Assembly: GCA_964016885.1 (NCBI GenBank)
Contig: OZ024741.1
Location: forward strand, 131,812,001 to 131,876,000
Direction: 5' to 3'
Origin: Eledone cirrhosa
Lineage: Eukaryota
Length of the DNA stretch: 64,000 bases
The notes below the pieces were generated by a model. It searched no databases, was not told the origin of the DNA, and was given only the letters and a program-made list of their open reading frames with translations. A program made the position numbers and the translations under genes. This document shows, one piece after another, positions 352-63,118 of this stretch. Position 1 is the first letter of the stretch, and every line of letters starts with the position of its first letter.

Positions 352-1420
352 GCGTGTGCGTGTGTGTGTGCGTGTGTGTGTGTGTGTAAATATATGAGCG
401 TATAGGGGTTTTTGAATAAATATGCGTATATCTGTGTATGTCTGGAAATGTTTGTGCGGGGTATGATCGCGTACGTTTGCTTTGATGCGTGTATTTTAGT
501 GAGTTAATATGTAAATGTATGCGTGCGTGAAATTTTATGTTCTTCGTTTCGATGTGTTTGTATGCGTATATTTATATGTTTATGTTCATCTATGCATGTT
601 TGTGTGTATGTATTCGTGTTGTATATATGCATTGAATTTCTGTATGCATGTGCGTTGTTGAACCTGTGATTTAATGCGCTTTTGAGTTTATCATATATGT
701 ATGCACATGTATGTATGTGTATGTGAGTGTGTATGTAAGTTTGTGAAAGATAACATGACTATGTTTATGTCTTTCTTTCATACTGTATATTTTGAATCTC
801 TGTGTATTTATTTATCATGTGTTCTCTCTATTGCTTCTGCATCTCCCCTTCACTATTTCAGTGTGTTTACGTATATGTACATGTGTGTGTATGTGTGTGT
901 ATTATGTACATGTGTGTGTATGTGTGTGTGTTTCTCCCCTGTACTATGAAATTTATTTCACTATGTGTATATATTAAGGACTGTTCATATCTATTCTTTT
1001 TCATTCTCCACCAATGTGTTTGCAAGAGAGGTAGAAAGAAAGCAAGAGAAATATAGAGTGTGAGATATTGGGAGTGTGTAAATGTTTGCATGTGTATCTA
1101 ATATAGCGTTATACACTAAGCTTATATATCATGTTCTCTTTCTCTCTTTGTCTCTCTCTCTCTCTCTCTTTCTCTCTCTATATCTCTCTCTCTCTCTCTC
1201 TCTCTATCACTCGGTCTCTCTCTATCATTCGCCCCCGCCCCCTCTCTCTCTCTCTCTATGTCCATATAAATATATTTATATGTGTTTGTGTGCGTGAGTG
1301 TTTGTGAATATATATATATATATATATATATGTTTGTGTGTATTTATATATATATATATATATATGTGTAAGTATGTGTGTATACGTACATACATATATG
1401 TATACAGACGTACAGTAGCA

Positions 1421-1506
<86 letters not shown>

Positions 1507-1676
1507 CATACATATATATACATACAGGTACACATACATATATGCACGTATCAGTTTAGCAGACTTTTATTATAACGCCGCTTTGTTCGTTTGTAAACAA
1601 ACTGAACAGCCTGAATTTTTATGCCATACGGTGTTAAGGCAACCACGTCACCTTTTTGTTCAACACTGACACAGGA

Positions 1677-1719
1677 ACGATGTACTAGTTTCAAGCTTGT
1701 TAGCTATCATCAGCACCGT
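1677..1719 (-). ncRNA. Minimal type I hammerhead ribozyme (family A)
   Basis: Minus strand ACGGTG-CTGATGA-TAGCT AACA AGCTT-GAAAC TA GTA-CATCGT: helix I 6 bp (one GU), helix II AGCT/AGCT, palindromic helix III ACTAGT, GUA site. Confidence 0.85.
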
Positions 1720-1956
1720 ATACCCATCTGCCAGATAGTTGAAGGTTCGAAAGTATATACTTTCCTTATGGAAATTAACGGCTGAGCAGCCTAATTTGCA
1801 TATCGAGTGAGCTAAGTCGGTCAGGCATACCGAAAACGATGAGTTGAAAAAAAAATGAAAACGAAATTTCATTTCTCACTCTTAGTACGGCACTTACTTA
1901 AATGTAAGTATGTGTGTATACGTACATACATATATGTATACAGACGTACAGTAGCA

Positions 1957-2036
<80 letters not shown>

Positions 2037-2189
2037 CATATATATACATACAGGTACACATACATATATGCACGTATCAGTTTAGCAGACGCTTATTATA
2101 ACGCCGCTTTGTTCGTTTGTAAACAAACTGAACAGCCTGAATTTTTATGCCGTACGGTGTTAACGCAACCACGTCACCCAGATGGGTAT

Positions 2190-2232
2190 ACGGTGCTGAT
2201 GATAGCTAACAAGCTTGAAACTAGTACATCGT
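2190..2232 (+). ncRNA. Minimal type I hammerhead ribozyme (family A)
   Basis: ACGGTG CTGATGA TAGCTAACAAGCTT GAAAC TA GTA CATCGT; complete core; predicted cleavage after 2226. Confidence 0.85.
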
Positions 2233-2398
2233 TCCTGTGTCAGTGTTGAACAAAAAGGTGACGTGGTTGCCTTAACACCGTACGGCATAAAAATTCAGGC
2301 TGCTCAGTTTGTTTACAAACGAACAAAGCGGCGTTATAATAAGCGTCTGCTAAACTGATACGTGCATATATGTATGTGTACCTGTATGTATATATATG

Positions 2399-2476
<78 letters not shown>

Positions 2477-2596
2477 TGCTACTGTAGTCTGTATACATAT
2501 ATGTATGTACGTATACACACATACTTACATTTAAGTAAGTGCTGTACTAAGAGTGAGAAATGAAATTTCGTTTTCATTTTTTTTTCAACTATATAT

Positions 2597-13477: not shown

Positions 13478-13513
13478 TCTTAACGTTTCGGACGCTAGTC
13501 CTTCATCAGAAGA
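13478..13513 (-). ncRNA. Minimal type I hammerhead ribozyme (family H)
   Basis: TCTT CTGATGA A GGAC TAGC GTCC GAAAC GTT AAGA: helix I TCTT/AAGA, helix II GGAC/GTCC, palindromic ACGT helix III; related decayed copy near 32195-32230. Confidence 0.85.
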
Positions 13514-17290: not shown

Positions 17291-17501
17291 GACGAAAGTG
17301 GATGTACGTTTTTTGAAGCTCCGTGAGTAAGCAATTTTTTGAGGATTAATTGTGGAGAATTGTTTATTTTTTTGTACCGCTGAAGCATTATAAGACATTC
17401 ATTTGTATCCTGTGAAGGAATAACTCATAATATTTGGGCCTTTTGGCCCAAATATTTGAACTTTATTTTGGAAAAATAATAATTTTTTTTCTCAAAAAAA
17501 C

Positions 17502-19406
17502 ATGGCGGAGCCACGCCCCCTAGAGGCGGGTCTGCTGTCGTGCAACGGCGACTTGAGCGTTGAGAGGAGAGGTGGGGCGAGGAGCGCCACCAGCACGAGT
17601 GTGAGCAGCGACAGTGCCAGCACCAACGGGCCGAGCGGCGCGGAAGGTGGTAACAGCGACAACACCAACACCAACAAGCCGAACAGCGCAGAAGGTGGTA
17701 ATAGCGAGAGCACCAACAAAACGAACAGCACAGAGAGTAATAGTAGCGACAGCAGCAGCACCAACAAGGCCAACAGCACAGAGGGTAACCACGACACAGG
17801 GGAGAACAACAACAGCAATAGCAGCAGCAACACCAACAAGAACAACAACAGTGACAACACCAACAAGAACATCTTCGCTGCTGTGGCAGCGGCTAAAAGG
17901 AGACCATGCTACAGCATCGACTTAACCAACAGAGAGGAAAAGTTGGCCCAGGCCTGGAAAATCATAAATCAAGAGCAGACCTGGGCAAACTTAACTGTCC
18001 CGGCAGAAGCCATTGAGGCAGTGGAAAAAAGAACGGTGCATTTCAGATGCATCTCAGTAGAGACAAAGAGGGCAGCGATAATCGCCCAAGCTGATATAGA
18101 AGCCGCACTGAAATACATCAGAGAGGACACAGACTTCATAGAGAGGGGCAGGCAATACGGCACCGTTTCGGTACTGTTCAAGTCTGAAGCCCTCGCTGTG
18201 AAGCATTCAATGACCCCTTGCAAAACCAGCAAGGTCATAATGTACCCCTCCCACATGGGAAAACGAATAGCACGTGTGCGCATTCCCAGGAATCCACCAG
18301 GACTTGATATGTGGTGGCTCCTGGGTTGCGTAATCGTGGAAGGAACGGATACAGTCCCGGTAGAGGCAACGAGAACTGCCAGGGACGACTGGTCCGGGGT
18401 TGATCTGGAGATACTGCTCCAAATCAGACCCGAAAACGTAAAAGCAATCCCGGACCACATCCGCCTCCAAAACGGGAGGGTGTTGCATATAATGACTGAG
18501 GGCAAAAGGCCGCATTGTTTCCTTTGTGGGGAAACGACACACTTGCGAGCCTTCTGCCCTCAACTGCCGAAAAGCGCAAGGGGTCGAAAGATTCCACTGC
18601 TGGCGACGCCGGGACAAGGACCACCAGCAACACCGTCAACAATGGAACCACCAAAATTGCACACCCAGGGGGGAAACGAGGAAAGCTCTCCCATTCCCCC
18701 TCCCCCCCAAAATACACACACGAACAAGAACATAAACACTCACTCACACACAAACACGCTCACAGACCCCTCATCCTCCAGCAGTGAAGATGAGGGAAAA
18801 CCAAAGTCCCCCAAAATACAAAAAACAAAACACAAAAAAAAAAGAAATCCACAAAGCACAAACACCCCCACAAAAAAAAATACACACACCACCCACACAA
18901 ACATTTTCCCCACAGCATCACCAACACAACCACCAAAATCCCCCAAACGCAAACAAGCTAAACAGACACAAGAACAAATAGACACACAAACATCAGAAAC
19001 TACAGACACCCCACCCACAACAAACGCAGACACAATAGAAACAACACTAACAAAGCTATCACCACCACAATCACACGAACAAATAAAACCCGAGCAACAA
19101 AACATTAAAAACTTCGTGCTTGCCAGAAGGGCCAACAAGGAATTGATGGCCCATGTAGCACGAAGCACAAACATCGAAAAAGAGGGGGAAACATTTGAAG
19201 CGAGCACATTTCGCGTACCAGATAATTTGCTTCTGATGCGAATGTCGCTCGCTTCATACAAAGAAATTCGAAAGAGCTTTCCTCGGGATGTGGGAACCCC
19301 GAACGTAAAACCCACTTCAAGACTATTAAAGGGGTTCCCAAAAGAAACCCCACAAACCATGGAGGTCGAACCACCCGACCTTCACAAGACCCCGGAAGGT
19401 AAGTAA
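17502..19406 (+). CDS. LINE ORF1 protein (gag-like, zinc knuckle)
   Basis: 634-aa open frame; CFLCGETTHLRAFC knuckle; low-complexity N-terminus and linker; ends 29 nt upstream of ORF2. Confidence 0.9.
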   Translation: MAEPRPLEAGLLSCNGDLSVERRGGARSATSTSVSSDSASTNGPSGAEGGNSDNTNTNKPNSAEGGNSESTNKTNSTESNSSDSSSTNKANSTEGNHDTGENNNSNSSSNTNKNNNSDNTNKNIFAAVAAAKRRPCYSIDLTNREEKLAQAWKIINQEQTWANLTVPAEAIEAVEKRTVHFRCISVETKRAAIIAQADIEAALKYIREDTDFIERGRQYGTVSVLFKSEALAVKHSMTPCKTSKVIMYPSHMGKRIARVRIPRNPPGLDMWWLLGCVIVEGTDTVPVEATRTARDDWSGVDLEILLQIRPENVKAIPDHIRLQNGRVLHIMTEGKRPHCFLCGETTHLRAFCPQLPKSARGRKIPLLATPGQGPPATPSTMEPPKLHTQGGNEESSPIPPPPQNTHTNKNINTHSHTNTLTDPSSSSSEDEGKPKSPKIQKTKHKKKRNPQSTNTPTKKNTHTTHTNIFPTASPTQPPKSPKRKQAKQTQEQIDTQTSETTDTPPTTNADTIETTLTKLSPPQSHEQIKPEQQNIKNFVLARRANKELMAHVARSTNIEKEGETFEASTFRVPDNLLLMRMSLASYKEIRKSFPRDVGTPNVKPTSRLLKGFPKETPQTMEVEPPDLHKTPEGK

Positions 19407-19435
19407 ACCTTTCCTCTCCCATTCATCCTGCCAGC

Positions 19436-22400
19436 ATGGCCATAAGAGTAGGAAGTTTAAATGTTCGAGGCCTGGGGTCGCCCTGGAAGCAAGGTCACTT
19501 GCTCAACGACCTCAGGTCACTAGGAATGGATGTAATTGCCATCAGCGAGACCAGAATTTCCGACACACGCACACTGGCGCCGATTTTCGACGATTATCAG
19601 ATCTTTGCATCTGTTAGTCGGCCGGGAATGGGAGGTGGAGTGGCTGTGCTGTTTAGGAAATGTCTGGATCTCGAGGTAAGGTCAATCTTCCGGGATCCTG
19701 ACGGAAAGTTGGTGGTCCTGGACGTGAGCAATAGCGAAGGTGGTGCCTTTAGACTGGTGGCCGTCTACGCCCCTACTGGGGCCGGTCGGCCGGACTTCTT
19801 TAGGTGCCTGGAAAACTTTCTGCTTACGTCTCGCCCTTTACTGTTAATAGGGGATTGGAATGGCATCTTAGAAGCACGCTGGGATTGTGTGGGAGTATCT
19901 GATAGGAGCGGGGGGTGCAAAAGCCTCAAGTACCTGATCAGCCAGTTTCAACTGTCTGACAGGTACCGACTAGATTTCCCTAATGCGCCAGTATGGACCT
20001 GGACCAATCGCATAGGGTCATCTAGATCGTACATAGATAGGATTTTCATTAGGAAAAGAGATAGAAATAGTGTAGGATGTCCACATTTTAAAACGGTTGC
20101 CTATTCAGATCACAAGCTTGTGATCTGTATGGTCGACCTAGATAAGACACGTAGGTTAGGACCTAGCTACTGGAAGCTAAACATGTCGTTTCCGGCACGT
20201 AAAGCTTACAGGGACCGGGTCAACAACTTAGTTAAGCAAAAGTTGACAGGGGGGGTTGTCAACAACAGGTGGTGGGGGGCTCTCAAAAGAGAGATTAGAG
20301 CAACCTCGATAGGATTTAGCAAAGAAGTAGCAATAGAGAAAAATAGAAAGGAGGAGGGGCTGATAGCTAAGTTAGACGAGGCTATTTGTAGTGGCATTGC
20401 AACAGACGTGCTAGCGGCGAGAATGGCACTAGACCATTTCTTCAATGCGAAACACGAAGGTTGCATTGTCAGAGCTAAGGCGCGTGCTCTGAGGAACGAG
20501 GGAACCAAAGCTGCCCGATGGGCTCGCTTTGCAGAGACGCAGCGTGGAAATAAAGCCACAATTCGGTCTTTGACGGATCGAGATGGACACGAACTGAGCG
20601 ATTCCAAGCAGATGTGTGAGGCCTTTCGCCAGCACTTTGCTCGATTGTTCGGGAGGATGGGTGAGTCGGAGACGGCGGCGGACTTCAGTCCCTACCTCGA
20701 CGGCTTGCCACGCCTCTCGACGGCCGACGCTGAGCGCTGCGAAGAGCCGATAACATCAGTCGAAATTCAGGACGCCCTTGTCGGCTGCTCGTGTCGCAAG
20801 TCACCCGGTTTGGATGGTCTGCCCTACGAGCTTTACGTAAATATGCCAGACTTGTTCTCCGATCTCCTCGAAGCGCTCTACTGCAAATGGCAGCAGAACG
20901 GGAGCATTCCCTGTTCTGTGAGCCGTGGCGTAGTGACGCTGATAAGGAAAGACGAGAACAAGAGGGACACACTAGATAATTTCAGGCCCATAACCCTGCT
21001 CAACACAGAGTTTAAGATTTTGGCCAAGGTGTTAGCGAAAAGGTTGGCGCTTGTCGTCAAAGATTTGGTTGGGGAGGCGCAAACTTGCGCAATCCCGACC
21101 AGGTCCATACACGACAACCTCCACCTCATGCGATACATCATAGAGAGGGTTGGGTGCAAACCTGGCTTCGGTGGGGCTCTGATCAATTTAGATCAATCGA
21201 AAGCATTCGATAGGGTCGACCATCGGTACTTGGAGGCTGTCCTCGAGGCGGCTGGCTTCGGCCCCGTCTTCAGAAGCTGGATCGCTGCAATGTACAGCGG
21301 CATCTGCTCGGTGGTCAAAGTTAATGGCCACCTCTCGGAACCGTTTCCGATCTCTCGATCGGTTCGTCAAGGGTGCCCTCTCTCCTCACTTCTGTACGTA
21401 TTGACTCTTGAGCCTCTACTGCGGAAGCTGGAGTTGTTGCAGGGCATCCCGCTCGAACCGGGACGTAGAAAGGCTGCGTCCGCTTATGCGGACGACATCA
21501 CCGTGATGGTGTCGGACACCTCGGAAATCGAGGTGATCCGCACCCATTTTGAGGAATATGAAAGGTTGACGGGAGCAAAACTTAACCCGGAAAAGTCGGT
21601 GGGCTTGCAGCTCGGCACCTGGAAAGGCAAGTCCATGCCGTCCAACAGCGTCGTTGGGCGCTGGACAGACGGACCGGTAAAGTTGCTCGGGGTTTGGTTC
21701 GGACCAGACCTCCAGGTGGATAAGAATTGGGACGAGGTGACGAGCAGGATAGCCAACCTCACCCAGAAATGGGCTGAGAGAAAGCTATCACTGAAAGGGC
21801 GGGCGGAGGTGGCGAACGCGTACATCGCGTCCGTCATCTACTACCGCCTGACCGTCGTGCCTTGCCCCCGTCCACGCCTCGCCAATTTGGAACGGCTCCT
21901 TTTCAAATTTTTGTGGAGGGGACGGGTCCCGTTGGTGAGGCGGTCCATCTGCTGCCAGCACCCTCTTCGTGGAGGGCTGGGCATGCCGTGGCTAATGATG
22001 CGCAGACATGCGCTGAGGCTGCGACATCTCCAGATATTTTGCCTAAACGGTGAACAGGTGTGGTCGCCGTTTGTTAGACGGGCCTTTCCGCAGCTCATCT
22101 CTTTGACTGAGCTGCAGTCCTGGGTCAAGAAGAGACCGAGACTGGGCGACTGGCATCTGGAATGTTGCCAGGCGCTCACTTCACTCTGCAAGGTGGGCAA
22201 TGCGGCCAGTGGAACTTCCACTCAAGATTTCTATAGAGGATTAGTGGAGGGCAAGTACGATGACGTACTAGGAGAGGCTCTAGGCGTCAACGAAGTAGAA
22301 CTGACCAGTATGTTCCGGAGGACTTTCGAGCCGGGGACGATGGATAACTTCCAGAAATCCCTCGCTTGGCAGTGCTACCGGGGGGGCGCTGCCGGTTCGG

Positions 22401-22856
22401 GATAAACTCTACAGGCACGGAAGTGCTGTCAGACGAACCTGCCCGAGATGCGCGCAGAGCGACGAAACCGTTCTGCACGCACTCGTCCAGTGTCCGTGCA
22501 TTGCTGACTTGTGGGGTCATGTCGAACAGCTATTGTCGCGTGTAGAACGGATCCGGCTATCGTCCGAGTCCATAGTGAAGATTGACCCGCCGCCTTCTTT
22601 TGGTCAGGAAGGGCAGGCAATTTTCCTCTGCCTGGTGGCAGTAGCGAAAGAGGTTGCATGGTGGACCAGGTTGAAAGGACTGAAGACAGACACTTTTCTC
22701 TTCGGCCAATCCCTCATCAACTTCTTCAAGTTTCACTTGGAAAGGAAGGTGAGGGTGGAGAGAGAAGTGCTGCCCCCCAGTACATTTACTGAAAGGTGGG
22801 TGAATGTGGCGAGAATGGCCCGCGTGAGTGGGCCTACTCTGATCATGCGCCTGTAG
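19436..22856 (+). CDS. LINE ORF2: AP endonuclease + reverse transcriptase + C-terminal CCHC, with one +1 frameshift near 22380-22386
   Basis: SLNVRGL, GDWN, IDR, SDH (APE); FRPITLLN, QGCPLS, YADD (RT); removing one G from the G7 run gives YRGALPVRDKL...CPRCAQSDETVLHALVQC and reads through to TAG at 22856 (1139 aa). Confidence 0.93.
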
Positions 22857-27620: not shown

Positions 27621-27934
27621 GTGTGTGTATGTGTGTGTATATGATTACACAAGTGCTTTTTCTCAAAAAACACTTTCCGTTCCCCCCTCTTCTCACTCTC
27701 TATCTTTCTATTTCATCTTTTATTTCTCATTCTAACAAAAGATGAAAGACTACTGTCCGGAACGTAAAAGTTCTTTTCCTACTCTATCAAGCATTAAACT
27801 AATATATTTCGTCATTTTGTTGTGTTGGATGAAACAGATGTAGTTGCTATTTTTAAAACTAATGCTATATTCGATGAATCTTTAACTTTCTCGTGTTTAT
27901 ATATAAGAACCGTGCATTCATTTGTTTATTGGAT

Positions 27935-28810
27935 GCTGCATCGAGATGCATGAATTTTGTTTTGTCAGCATTCAAGAAGAGTCCAATGGAGTGAACTGCA
28001 GCCTCCACCCTGTGACTTACTTCTTCATCTTCTTTGCAAGTATTTTCTAGGAGAGCTATGGCATCAGCGTAGGCCATTTCAGGTAGAACTTTTTCCGGGT
28101 GATGGGTGCTTTGTCGACTTTTTAGCATTATCTGTCTGGTGATGCAATGGCATTACGCAGTACATAGTCAAGGCATATCGCAAAAAGGATCGCAGTGGAT
28201 CTCCTTGGAGGTTTCCGATATCAATGAGGAGTAGGTCTATGTTTCCCTCGGATGACATCACAAGTGCTGAAGTATGCTCATATATGACTTTAATTACATT
28301 CATGATCTGATGAGGTATGCCATAAAGAAGACCTTTTAACATTTCGTTCGCTCGATCGAATCAAAAGCTTTCCTGAAATCTATGGATACAATTGCTGCCT
28401 CCTTCTTGTGATTCCGTACTTCCTCATCAATCCTTCTAAGAAGCAAGATATGTGAGGAAGTAGAGCGAAATGGCTGAAATCCAATTTCGCTGCGACGTAG
28501 ACTGTTGTCGATACTTATTCTGATCCTATTCTACATCATTCTGTTGCAAGACTTTGCTGTAATTTGCGTAAGACTGATGCTTCTATGGCTTGTGAAAATG
28601 GTAAAGACATCTTTCTTAGGAATTGTTACTATTCTTGATAGTCCTCAATGCACAGGCCTGAGCCCATCAAACGTCTCGATACAGAAGTTTCTTAGAAAGT
28701 TGCGAGCATTAAGTAGTTTCTATAGGTCTACTGTTAGGCCATCAAGCTCAGGAGCTTTGCTTGGTTTCATTGCCTTTAGTGTATTGTGCACCTCTTGTAC
28801 AGAGATGTTA
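27935..28810 (-). pseudogene. Decayed RTE-like reverse transcriptase fragment
   Basis: Frameshifted IDFRKAFDSI, YGIP, QGDPL, AYADAIALL, IGLFLNADKTKFM. Confidence 0.85.
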
Positions 28811-29139: not shown

Positions 29140-29250
29140 CGTTATTCCGGGTTGAATCGGAGGTAACCACAGTAAGTAAGGTACTCAATACATAGCAGAG
29201 TATAACAGTTTTAATATAGATTAAGATTCCTGATGATTTAATATAGATAT

Positions 29251-29301
29251 AGATTCCTGATGATTTCAAATGAATGAAACAGTTCTAGTCCTGTAGAATC
29301 T
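29251..29301 (+). ncRNA. Type I hammerhead ribozyme (family D) in ~170-bp element 29140-29317
   Basis: AGATTC CTGATGA TTTC AAAT GAAT GAAAC AG TTCTAGTC CT GTA GAATCT; helix I extends via TTAATATAGAT/ATCTATATTAA; decayed sisters at 61075-61260. Confidence 0.8.
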
Positions 29302-29313
29302 CATCTATATTAA

Positions 29314-29388
<75 letters not shown>

Positions 29389-48069: not shown

Positions 48070-48392
48070 CTAAACGTCTGATGAGCAGATCGATGCCAGA
48101 GTTATGTCTGTTGTATCGATTAAGACCTTGAGTTGATCATCTACGAGAGAGAAAAAAACATACAAAACGTACATGTATGTGTGCTGATGATTATACACAC
48201 AAATAATATAGAAGATATGGAAACATTGCAAATGTTTCCATATAAGGGCTTACAATCCGCCAAAATCTGAAAACCTATCTTCTTGAATCATTACAGTAAC
48301 TTTACTGTTGTTGACGTTGTTGTTGCTGTTATTTTGGTTATCATTGTTGTTGTTGTTGTTTTTCTTGTTGGTGTTGTTGTTGTTGGTGTTGG

Positions 48393-55805: not shown

Positions 55806-56003
55806 AATTGTTTCTACTTTAGGCACAAGGCCAGCAATTAACCAGTGCATTACTGGTACTTTATTTTATCGACCCCGTAAGGATGAAAGGCAAAGTTAAC
55901 CTCGGCGGGATTTGAACTCAGAATGGCAAGGGCCGTAATTCTATACGTCAATGCATGGCGTCCGAGACCCTCTACCGATACTGCCAATCCTCCACCGCCT
56001 ACC
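55806..56003 (-). mobile_element. SINE family S1, full length
   Basis: Full consensus match; a second copy at 56809-56979 lies across an ~800-bp (TA)n tract. Confidence 0.85.
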
Positions 56004-56807: not shown

Positions 56808-57020
56808 TAATTGTTTCTACTTTAGGCACAAGGCCAGCAATTACCCAGTGCATTACTGGTACTTTATTTTATCGACCCCGTAAGGATGAAAGGCAAAGTC
56901 AACCTCGGCGAGTTTTGAACTCAGATCGTAAAGGACGTAACTATGCTGGAAAGCATGGCGTCCGACCCTTTACCGATACAATATATTAATAAACGGAAAC
57001 TATATTTATAAAACCATATT

Positions 57021-57086
57021 TATTTTATTATATATATTTCAAGGGCAACCAAGGCAAATTATGGTGCCCTTTCATCAGATAAAATA
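57021..57086 (-). ncRNA. Type I hammerhead ribozyme (family F)
   Basis: TATTTTAT CTGATGA AAGGGCA CCA..TGG T TGCCCTT GAAA TATATAT A ATAAAATA; 8-bp helix I, palindromic helix III, AUA site. Confidence 0.85.
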
Positions 57087-57184
57087 CAGATTTGTTTTAT
57101 AAATAAATATTGACATACCCGGAAAAAAGACAACCTTAACGGTTGGAGTTTCCTGGATAGTTTAAGCCTATTGAATATAACCTC

Positions 57185-58622: not shown

Positions 58623-58688
58623 ATAAACATAACGGTTGCTCAATATTTATGGTACGTCAAAATTATTTATAAAACTGTTTATATATTG

Positions 58689-58754
58689 TATTTTATCTGA
58701 AGAAGGCATGCCATATTTTTAATATGGTATCCCCGAAATATGTATAATGAAATA
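58689..58754 (+). ncRNA. Type I hammerhead ribozyme (family F)
   Basis: TATTTTAT CTGAAGA AGGC ATGCCATATT TTT AATATGGTAT CCCC GAAA TATGTAT A ATGAAATA. Confidence 0.8.
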
Positions 58755-58896
58755 AATATGGTTTTATAAATATAGTTTCCATTTGTTTAATATCGTATAT
58801 CTACTCCAAAACTTGTCGAGTGCTTTATATCAGTTATAAAATATTTACTTGTTGTAACCCAACAATTTTAAATAAAACTTTTGCATATATATATAC

Positions 58897-60533: not shown

Positions 60534-61258
60534 ATAAATGTAATCTGAGTGTTTCGAATATTAATCATAATATTCGATTCGTTTGCAATTATGAAAACAA
60601 GCCTCATTTTTAAAGCCATGTCAGTAGAATGAGCCCCTCATTCTTGCTCTTGTGTTGGCATGTAAACAGAACTGCAGACAATAATGTTTCTGGGTATTAC
60701 TCTTCATCAATACAGTTCACTGTCCACCTGCCAACTGTCAGAGCTAGTGAAAATATATGATATTTTCTAAAATATACAATGATTGACTGGTCTGATTTGC
60801 ATATTAGCAGACTGACTGATCAGTCAGATCTGCATATTAGCTAGTCCACTAGTCAGCTAGATTTGCATATCAGCAGTCTGGCCAGTCAGTTTCCTGTATG
60901 AATGGGCGGCTTTGCCATATTCAAATAAAAATAATTTTCGCTCTATATATTTGTGAGTTTGAGTGTGTGTGTGTGCATGTGTGTGTGTGTGTGCGTGCGT
61001 GTGTGTGTGAGTCTGTATGTGTGTATATATGTGTGTGTGTGTGTGTGTGTGTATTTGTGTGCGTGCGTATCCCAGATTCAAACGGAGCTAACCACAGTAA
61101 GTAAGGTACTCAATACATAGCAGAGTATAAATGTTTAATATAGAAATGGCTTCTACACGTCTAGAACAGTTTCATTCGAAAGAAATCTAAAGGAACGCTG
61201 ACAGTCGGCTTTACTGGTGATTCCCTTCGTCTGAAACAGTTCTAGTCCTGTAGAAGTC

Positions 61259-61335
<77 letters not shown>

Positions 61336-62401: not shown

Positions 62402-62491
<90 letters not shown>

Positions 62492-62696
62492 TATGTATAC
62501 GTACATACATATATGTGTACAGATGTACAGTAGTATGTATATATATACATACATGCACACACATATATATATATGTACGTATGGCTTTACCGAACATTTA
62601 TTATAATGGTCGGTTTGTTTGTAAACAAACAGCCCGAATTACGCCGTACAGTGCTCGGCAACCATCGTCGCCCTTTTGTTCAACACTGACACAGGA

Positions 62697-62739
62697 ACGA
62701 TGTACTAGTTTCAAGCTTATTAGCTATCGTCAGCATCGT
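62697..62739 (-). ncRNA. Minimal type I hammerhead ribozyme (family A, diverged copy)
   Basis: ACGATG CTGACGA TAGCT AATA AGCTT GAAAC TA GTA CATCGT; helix I fully Watson-Crick. Confidence 0.85.
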
Positions 62740-62814
62740 GTACCTTTCTGTCAGATGATTGAACGTTTGAAAGTATGCATAAGGATACTTAATATGCATG
62801 CCTATGTATGTCTC

Positions 62815-63118
62815 TTATCGACCCGGTAAGGATGAAAGGCAAAGCTAACTTCAGTGGGATTTGAACTCAGAAGTAAAGTGCAATAACTCTATTCTGCAAA
62901 GCATAGCGTCACATGTTCTATTGATACTGCCAAACCACCACCCTACGGCTAAATTTAAGGGTAAATAATTGTTTCTATTTTAGGCACAAGGCCAGCAATT
63001 AGCCAGTACATTACTGGTACTTTATTTTATCGACCCCGTAAGGATGAAAAGCAAAGTTAACCTCGGCGGGATTTGAACTCAGATCATAAAGGGACGTAAC
63101 TCTATGCTTCAAAGCATG
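62815..63118 (-). mobile_element. Two adjacent SINE S1 copies (62815-62942 and 62966-63118)
   Basis: Both match the S1 consensus. Confidence 0.8.

Follow-up and report, generated by a model that had tools for sequence, protein, structure and literature searches.

Does a non-coding, hammerhead-bearing repeat that is joined head-to-tail and then folds back on itself mark a source of circular RNA, or was it laid down as a copy by the enzymes of another element? We addressed this for a locus in a 64-kb window, i.e. the whole stretch of DNA that was analysed. The locus probably represents one insertion of an abundant ORF-less repeat with a predicted type I hammerhead ribozyme that was copied in trans into (TA)n by a Penelope-like element (PLE). 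Self-comparison of the window defined a non-coding unit of 536 nt (1367–1902, GC of 0.32) that restarts at 1903, has its RNA sense on the minus strand and ends with its 3' end at 1366–1367 against a left flanking (TA)n tract (1345–1365). It contains an internal (TA)n of 70 nt (1424–1493), with counterparts of 72 nt at 1960–2031 and 70 nt at 2403–2472. Upstream of this full unit lies a 5'-truncated copy of 276 nt without ribozyme (1903–2178, minus strand), a pseudo-LTR, which ends 30 nt before a second cleavage site would be reached. The initial annotation had described a TA-containing unit of about 540 bp repeated head-to-tail; the unit stands at 536 nt, but its second copy is only partial. 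TRF on the window (period limit 500) returned microsatellites only.

At 2178/2179 the partial copy meets, as seen by sequence comparison, an inverted 5'-truncated copy (2179–2529, plus strand) in a head-to-head joint without microhomology. The inverted copy enters the unit 78 nt further along than the stop of the partial copy and is followed by a 61-nt tail (2530–2590, plus strand), which equals the first 61 nt of the unit and extends past the 3' end on the right arm only. RNA sense is thus minus across 1367–2178 and plus across 2179–2590, with a left arm of 812 nt (1.5 units) and a right arm of 412 nt including the tail. A second (TA)n tract follows on the right (2591–2710). Both flanking tracts are the likely insertion target, a sequence in which a target-site duplication cannot be read, and (TA)n adjoins each of the three (3/3) 3' ends that the element has in the window.

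The inverted arms 1842–2178 and 2257–2590 form the 750-bp palindrome (1842–2590) that had been noted before, with the plus-strand hammerhead (2190–2232) located, as claimed, in the asymmetric 78-nt spacer between them (2179–2256). The palindrome arms are 98–99% alike: they differ at three substituted positions, by a gap of 1 nt and by 2 nt in the length of the TA run. Comparison of the three arms gave 3, 1 and 3 positions with changes private to one copy, and so few differences would fit one fairly recent event. The two left-arm copies mismatch at 4 of 143 core positions, which ageing explains and two different templates would explain equally. A near-perfect 750-bp palindrome in low-complexity DNA may raise the suspicion of a fold-back chimera or an assembly artefact, but every arm has private changes, the two flanks differ in sequence, and both the asymmetry of the spacer and the presence of a tail on one side only are features seen in PLEs, so that we give this explanation almost no credence. 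The likeness of the arms could also reflect a DNA-level origin, namely a dispersed ribozyme-bearing SINE-like copy that was later duplicated and inverted by hairpin-primed fold-back or by break repair in a TA tract. TA tracts are self-complementary and fragile. This origin is nevertheless improbable, given that the fold-back joint lies in unique sequence, lacks microhomology and copied no flanking DNA, that both ends stop at element-defined points, and that similar joints occur at many positions of the family (see below).

The fold-back, left unexplained in the initial annotation, is in its layout the standard insertion signature of PLEs. According to the accessible text of PMC8557442, PLE insertions comprise a partial tandem, an adjacent inverted truncated copy and an optional tail at one end, with a bias towards (TA)n, and head-to-head is the most frequent orientation in the part of PMC3846280 available to us. 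At our locus, the partial tandem is the pseudo-LTR 1903–2178 upstream of 1367–1902, the adjacent inverted, 5'-truncated head-to-head copy spans 2179–2529, the tail at one end measures 61 nt compared with the usual 30–40 nt in the literature, and the AT-rich microsatellite target is (TA)n. Since this layout corresponds to the published PLE footprint and no ORF is present, the locus is best read as a retrozyme-type element that is non-autonomous and mobilised by PLEs.

The lack of a coding remnant was confirmed: Pfam gave 0 matches in the three frames from the locus and the copy at 62.5 kb (among 150 of 181 filtered frames), no PLE domain, and with it no autonomous partner, was found among 155 frames scanned in the window, and an RT plus GIY-YIG ORF of an autonomous PLE was not found at the locus. 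An ATG inside the ribozyme opens 16 codons. These observations bear on the alternative that the locus consists solely of pseudo-LTRs, the truncated 3' termini of an autonomous PLE with an ORF, and that no separate short family exists. Autonomous PLEs have the same architecture, and PMC4209133, in its accessible portion, reports that most PLE copies are truncated, with opposite-strand hammerhead pairs 100–700 bp apart. However, 183 nt upstream of the ribozyme the sequence has already come back to the 3' end of the unit itself, and from the tail to the ribozyme there are 122 nt without an ORF between them. Together with the helix sizes of the ribozyme, which are of the canonical retrozyme type and not of the minimal PLE type, and with read depth (both below), this makes the pseudo-LTR explanation unlikely. 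The earlier view of an ORF-less repeat with a conserved type I hammerhead and a retrozyme-like build, and of more at this locus than a long PLE's 3' terminus, is upheld.

A hammerhead descriptor applied to both strands of the 64-kb window gave seven rows, three of them from the 536-nt family (1719–1677, minus; 2190–2232, plus; 62739–62697, minus), compared with strict matches in 0/60 shuffled windows. The first predicted type I core (1677–1719, minus strand) has a predicted cleavage site after 1683 and an outer stem I at about 1660–1743. The second (2190–2232, plus strand) is identical in its core, with predicted cleavage after 2226, and the 5' strand of its outer stem is mostly cut off. In the motif, the core is complete, the cleavage triplet is GUA, helix I has 6 bp together with a bulge of 3 nt and the outer stem, helix II has 4 bp on a U.U, and the palindromic helix III has 1–2 bp. 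Judged by these stem lengths, the ribozyme has canonical type I proportions and not the minimal PLE form (min-HHR), for which the available text of PMC4209133 gives a helix II of 7–8 bp, a helix I of 4–5 bp and a poorly defined loop 1. Of the previous proposal of a minimal hammerhead with palindromic helix III, the short palindromic helix persists and the minimal form does not.

Rfam at the gathering score yielded 0 matches in the 64 kb; by E-value, HH9 was sub-threshold (18.6 bits vs 52, E 0.12) and the remainder was hairpin and TA noise. With no match above threshold, the hammerhead is called from the descriptor together with the pattern of conservation. In population reads (40 of 68 variant rows), variants in the ribozyme fell on N7, on loop II and on both sides of one helix I pair, and catalytic core nucleotides were unhit. 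At this pair (1716/1680), G.U and A-U both occur and U.G is indicated by matching allele shares, the changes that produce it having shares of 0.51/0.49 and 0.045/0.052 that match on both read orientations, which may be taken as an unphased sign of covariation. The active fold of the monomer is predicted to cost about 7.5 kcal/mol relative to the free fold; this modelled penalty counts against the proposed ribozyme function and would also be consistent with a need to dimerise. Axolotl retrozyme ribozymes cleave better as dimers (PMC7229834, accessible text). A further point against the proposed function is that cleavage failed in 8 of the 9 predicted dimers from frogs in the experiments covered by the available part of 10.64898/2026.07.22.740005. 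The ribozyme domain alone reached a folding z of only −1.8, and the 376-nt non-microsatellite part of the unit (1540–1915) one of −3.2, with 0/100 shuffles as good.

The same conservation pattern was seen in an older solo copy at 62488–62776 (minus strand), which lies against (TA)n, is 5'-truncated and is 79% identical over 218 columns. Relative to the first unit, 3 of 43 positions are changed in its hammerhead (62739–62697) versus 34 of 122 columns of its 3' flank (Fisher p = 0.005), which bears out the earlier statement that the hammerhead is better kept than its flanks. The three changes are G.U to A-U in helix I, N7 and loop II; the core is spared and helix I is still paired. The 3' end of this copy lies within 2–3 nt of that of the left arm, in two independent insertions. 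At its 5' break (62777–62814), an inverted 7–8-nt piece of the unit was observed, which might reflect a minute fold-back where the copy was truncated. A 7-bp hairpin with −5.6 kcal/mol is predicted across the unit joint 1903/1902 (1891–1910, minus strand) and is repeated at 2522–2541 on the plus strand. It lies 3' of an AC-rich run, the left arm and the 62.5-kb copy both have their 3' ends in or beside its loop, and the right-arm end is 61 nt beyond. This hairpin forms only in RNA that contains the unit joint.

The 536-nt repeat family is very abundant. Four of 23 public sequencing runs (X1, X4, X16 and X21) were mapped to 1525–1958 at 85% likeness; 1908–1958 was skipped as repeat in mapping, and the unit joint was directly followed for 5 nt only. 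Of the 17 rows with a share below 0.3, 15 fall outside the mapped set and are given no weight; none of the listed runs with the repeat is an RNA data set, which carries no information on expression. Run X1 contained 5,779 contigs of the family, X16 73 and X4, labelled as another organism, 20. In X21, a run of reduced-representation DNA, 114,610 of 12,467,656 reads (0.9%) matched. Parts of 1525–1907 are covered in each of the four runs, with no single piece spanning the whole stretch. The X4 contigs are common only over the ribozyme core 1689–1724 and then differ in their flanks, i.e. they represent other families with the same ribozyme. Exact-pattern scans returned 0 loci in metagenome contigs, prokaryote genomes and viral contigs. 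The family is undescribed in the literature surveyed, including work on cephalopod ribozymes, and may be catalogued in the supplement of PMC7229834 or in Repbase/Dfam.

Among the best 15 of 150 joints, 12 were opposite-strand joints at different positions, all in X21. Four of these 12 are head-to-head like 2178/2179 (side lengths 24, 24, 32 and 36), polarity being read from side length as the distance to the cut site or stretch end. These fold-back joints are supportive of recurrent inversion but not proof, because chimeras arise in libraries of this kind and the majority of joints have 1–5 read starts; the joints listed came from X21 and none from the contig runs. An apparent cluster of fold-back breakpoints at 1712–1765 was discarded as possibly due to size selection. 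Piles of loose read ends were likewise rejected as element ends or as a branch into an ORF, since they coincide with AATT sites and thus with library cuts. The largest were behind 1617–1619 (33,126 reads) and before 1864–1865 (28,452 reads), with an agreement of about 0.34, and read ends at 1776, 1793, 1796 and 1868 also fall on AATT sites. Reads loose before 1864–1865 had a median of 50–51 loose letters; 94 + 50 = 144 of 150 nt therefore places the read start at the GCATGC site 1954–1959 in the 3' segment of the unit, and we infer from this expected length that the unit joint would lie within about 28,000 reads. For the X21 library, a pair of enzymes as common in ddRAD practice is presumed.

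Among the loose ends listed, in runs with short contigs, there was no dominant branch into foreign sequence. A further 504 loose ends beyond these, and one X16 contig that continues for 255 nt unlike the stretch, could be counted in favour of truncated ends of a longer PLE. On the other side, the summed X1 depth of 1.2–1.6 million over 1750–1809 is close to that of the ribozyme (1.0–2.0 million), summed contig depth not being taken as copy number, and contigs that run on unlike the stretch have a share of 0 in X1 and 0.01 in X16, a weak argument with contigs this short. A loose end with a TA run before 1859 in X16 is hinting at a tail that ends near 1842 in other copies.

Like metazoan non-LTR retrozymes, the repeat is ORF-less, low in GC and high in copy number and has a predicted canonical type I hammerhead. 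Its short palindromic helix III is shared with axolotl HHR_Amex1 and the U.U at the base of helix II with HHR_Amex2. It differs from metazoan retrozymes in its 536 nt with internal (TA)n, which is above the 170–400 nt given in the accessible text of PMC7229834 and inside the 51–972 bp given in that of 10.64898/2026.07.22.740005, and in its arrangement as 1.5 units plus an inverted copy instead of a same-strand array. We therefore considered whether the locus itself is a classical tandem non-LTR retrozyme that gives unit-length linear and circular RNA. The head-to-tail joint, the canonical type I ribozyme, the 32% GC and the structured unit (z −3.2, bettered or equalled by none of 100 shuffles) would all suit such an element, as would the resemblance of helix III and the U.U to the two axolotl retrozyme ribozymes (PMC7229834, in the part accessible). 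A monomer, however, requires two same-strand cuts. The locus comprises 1.5 units with one ribozyme per strand and does not contain at least two consecutive same-strand units with a complete ribozyme, whereas two consecutive hammerheads are the criterion in the available text of 10.64898/2026.07.22.740005. With one cleavage site per strand, the locus cannot release unit-length RNA or form a dimer in cis, which renders the tandem-retrozyme explanation very improbable. The tandem monomers with one hammerhead each that the initial annotation had envisaged are accordingly absent, as the second copy has no ribozyme and the two ribozymes are on opposite strands.

With endonuclease-bearing PLEs (Penelope/Poseidon, Neptune, Nematis and Hydra; Pen2a_Av, PMC3846280; PAc, PMC11167929; both in accessible part), the repeat shares the partial tandem, the head-to-head inverted truncated copy and the one-sided tail, as well as a hammerhead in the terminal repeat, an AT-rich target and a fixed 3' end at an AC-rich hairpin. 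It differs from them in having no RT/GIY-YIG ORF, a body of about 250 nt, a tail of 61 nt and a ribozyme that is canonical, not minimal. Non-autonomous Chlamys PLEs such as MRC1 are also short and non-coding, with pseudo-LTRs, head-to-tail copies and microsatellite targets, but Chlamys is green algal and its clade is mostly without canonical hammerheads, as far as described in the available text of PMC8557442. Animal retrozymes have been proposed to be moved by PLEs, and solo and partial copies are described (PMC7229834 and 10.64898/2026.07.22.740005, accessible parts). The relation of non-autonomous PLE derivatives and retrozymes is thus already argued in print, and the class is known. The contrast drawn earlier between a retrozyme and a PLE pseudo-LTR is largely a false choice, animal retrozymes having been proposed as non-autonomous PLE derivatives in the part of 10.64898/2026.07.22.740005 available.

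For a PLE-mobilised, non-autonomous repeat, the two arms place limits on the template. Each crosses the unit joint as well as the cleavage site without a break; the template was therefore likely circular or multimeric, as a linear monomer that runs from cut to cut cannot template them; the data fit a circle or an uncleaved multimer alike. In experiments with a purified PLE protein, as far as covered by the accessible text of PMC11167929, ribozyme cleavage was dispensable and uncleaved RNA was the main substrate. [quoted passage not shown] The hairpin across the unit joint and the end points of the two arms agree with this scheme. We propose that the template was an RNA exceeding one unit in length, either circular or an uncleaved multimer, that came from another locus and on which the RT and endonuclease of an autonomous endonuclease-bearing PLE would have acted in trans. 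The enzyme would nick both strands of (TA)n, and cDNA would be primed from each strand. The left-arm cDNA may have started at the hairpin that marks the unit 3' end and given 812 nt (1.5 units), and the right-arm cDNA may have started 61 nt further on and given 412 nt with the tail. Both cDNAs would have stopped early and then been joined end to end, which would yield the head-to-head palindrome. Self-priming on an antisense template has been proposed as an inversion route (PMC3846280, in its accessible part); end joining is slightly favoured over it because the joint has neither palindrome nor microhomology. Multimeric transcripts from true tandem loci would be processed to monomers by the ribozyme, which probably would act as a dimer.

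The repeat is thus likely a hitch-hiker on Penelope-type enzymes rather than itself a circular RNA source, and the locus a by-product copy and not a circRNA source. PLE mobilisation of animal retrozymes has so far rested on co-occurrence, shared ribozymes and pLTR phylogeny, in the literature as partly accessible here. The unit described here is of the retrozyme type and carries the PLE-specific inversion and tail, and its value is that of a test case. More tentatively, and with doubt prevailing, the family could be a circRNA-forming animal retrozyme family in which thousands of copies, through their two fixed start points, the joint hairpin and the head-to-head inversions, record two-ended target-primed copying of a small RNA circle by a PLE enzyme. 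If true, this would support the proposed PLE mobilisation of retrozyme circles with direct evidence from structure, and would offer a compact substrate for that step in vitro.

The window contains further ribozyme-bearing elements. Two related hammerheads at 56976–57119 (minus) and 58651–58787 (plus) are 79% alike, have a long helix II of the minimal PLE type and lie on opposite strands 1.6 kb apart; they form a second ribozyme-bearing family, and a frame scan found no PLE domain between them. A third hammerhead family occurs in (TA)n at 29140–29320, with a U.U at the base of helix II; its helix III is longer, the 5' half of its core is duplicated, and it has a rearranged, partly inverted relative near 61.1–61.3 kb (61068–61266). 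The relaxed scan alone, for which shuffles gave a mean of 0.2 matches, recovered a very small minimal-PLE-type hammerhead with a 4-bp helix I and no loop III (13480–13513, minus), and a weaker candidate lies at 48184 (plus). A near-intact two-ORF LINE at 17460–22856 (plus) encodes a 648-codon frame without Pfam match and a 1000-codon frame with AP endonuclease and RT, with zf-RVT in a shifted frame; it is not a PLE, and no link to the 536-nt repeat was seen. Decayed RT fragments (27868–28530, minus) matched RVT_1 below the curated cut-off. Copies of an abundant SINE-like repeat, which we take to be reminiscent of octopus repeats, are located at 55810–55990, 56810–56980, 62815–62940 and 62980–63060.
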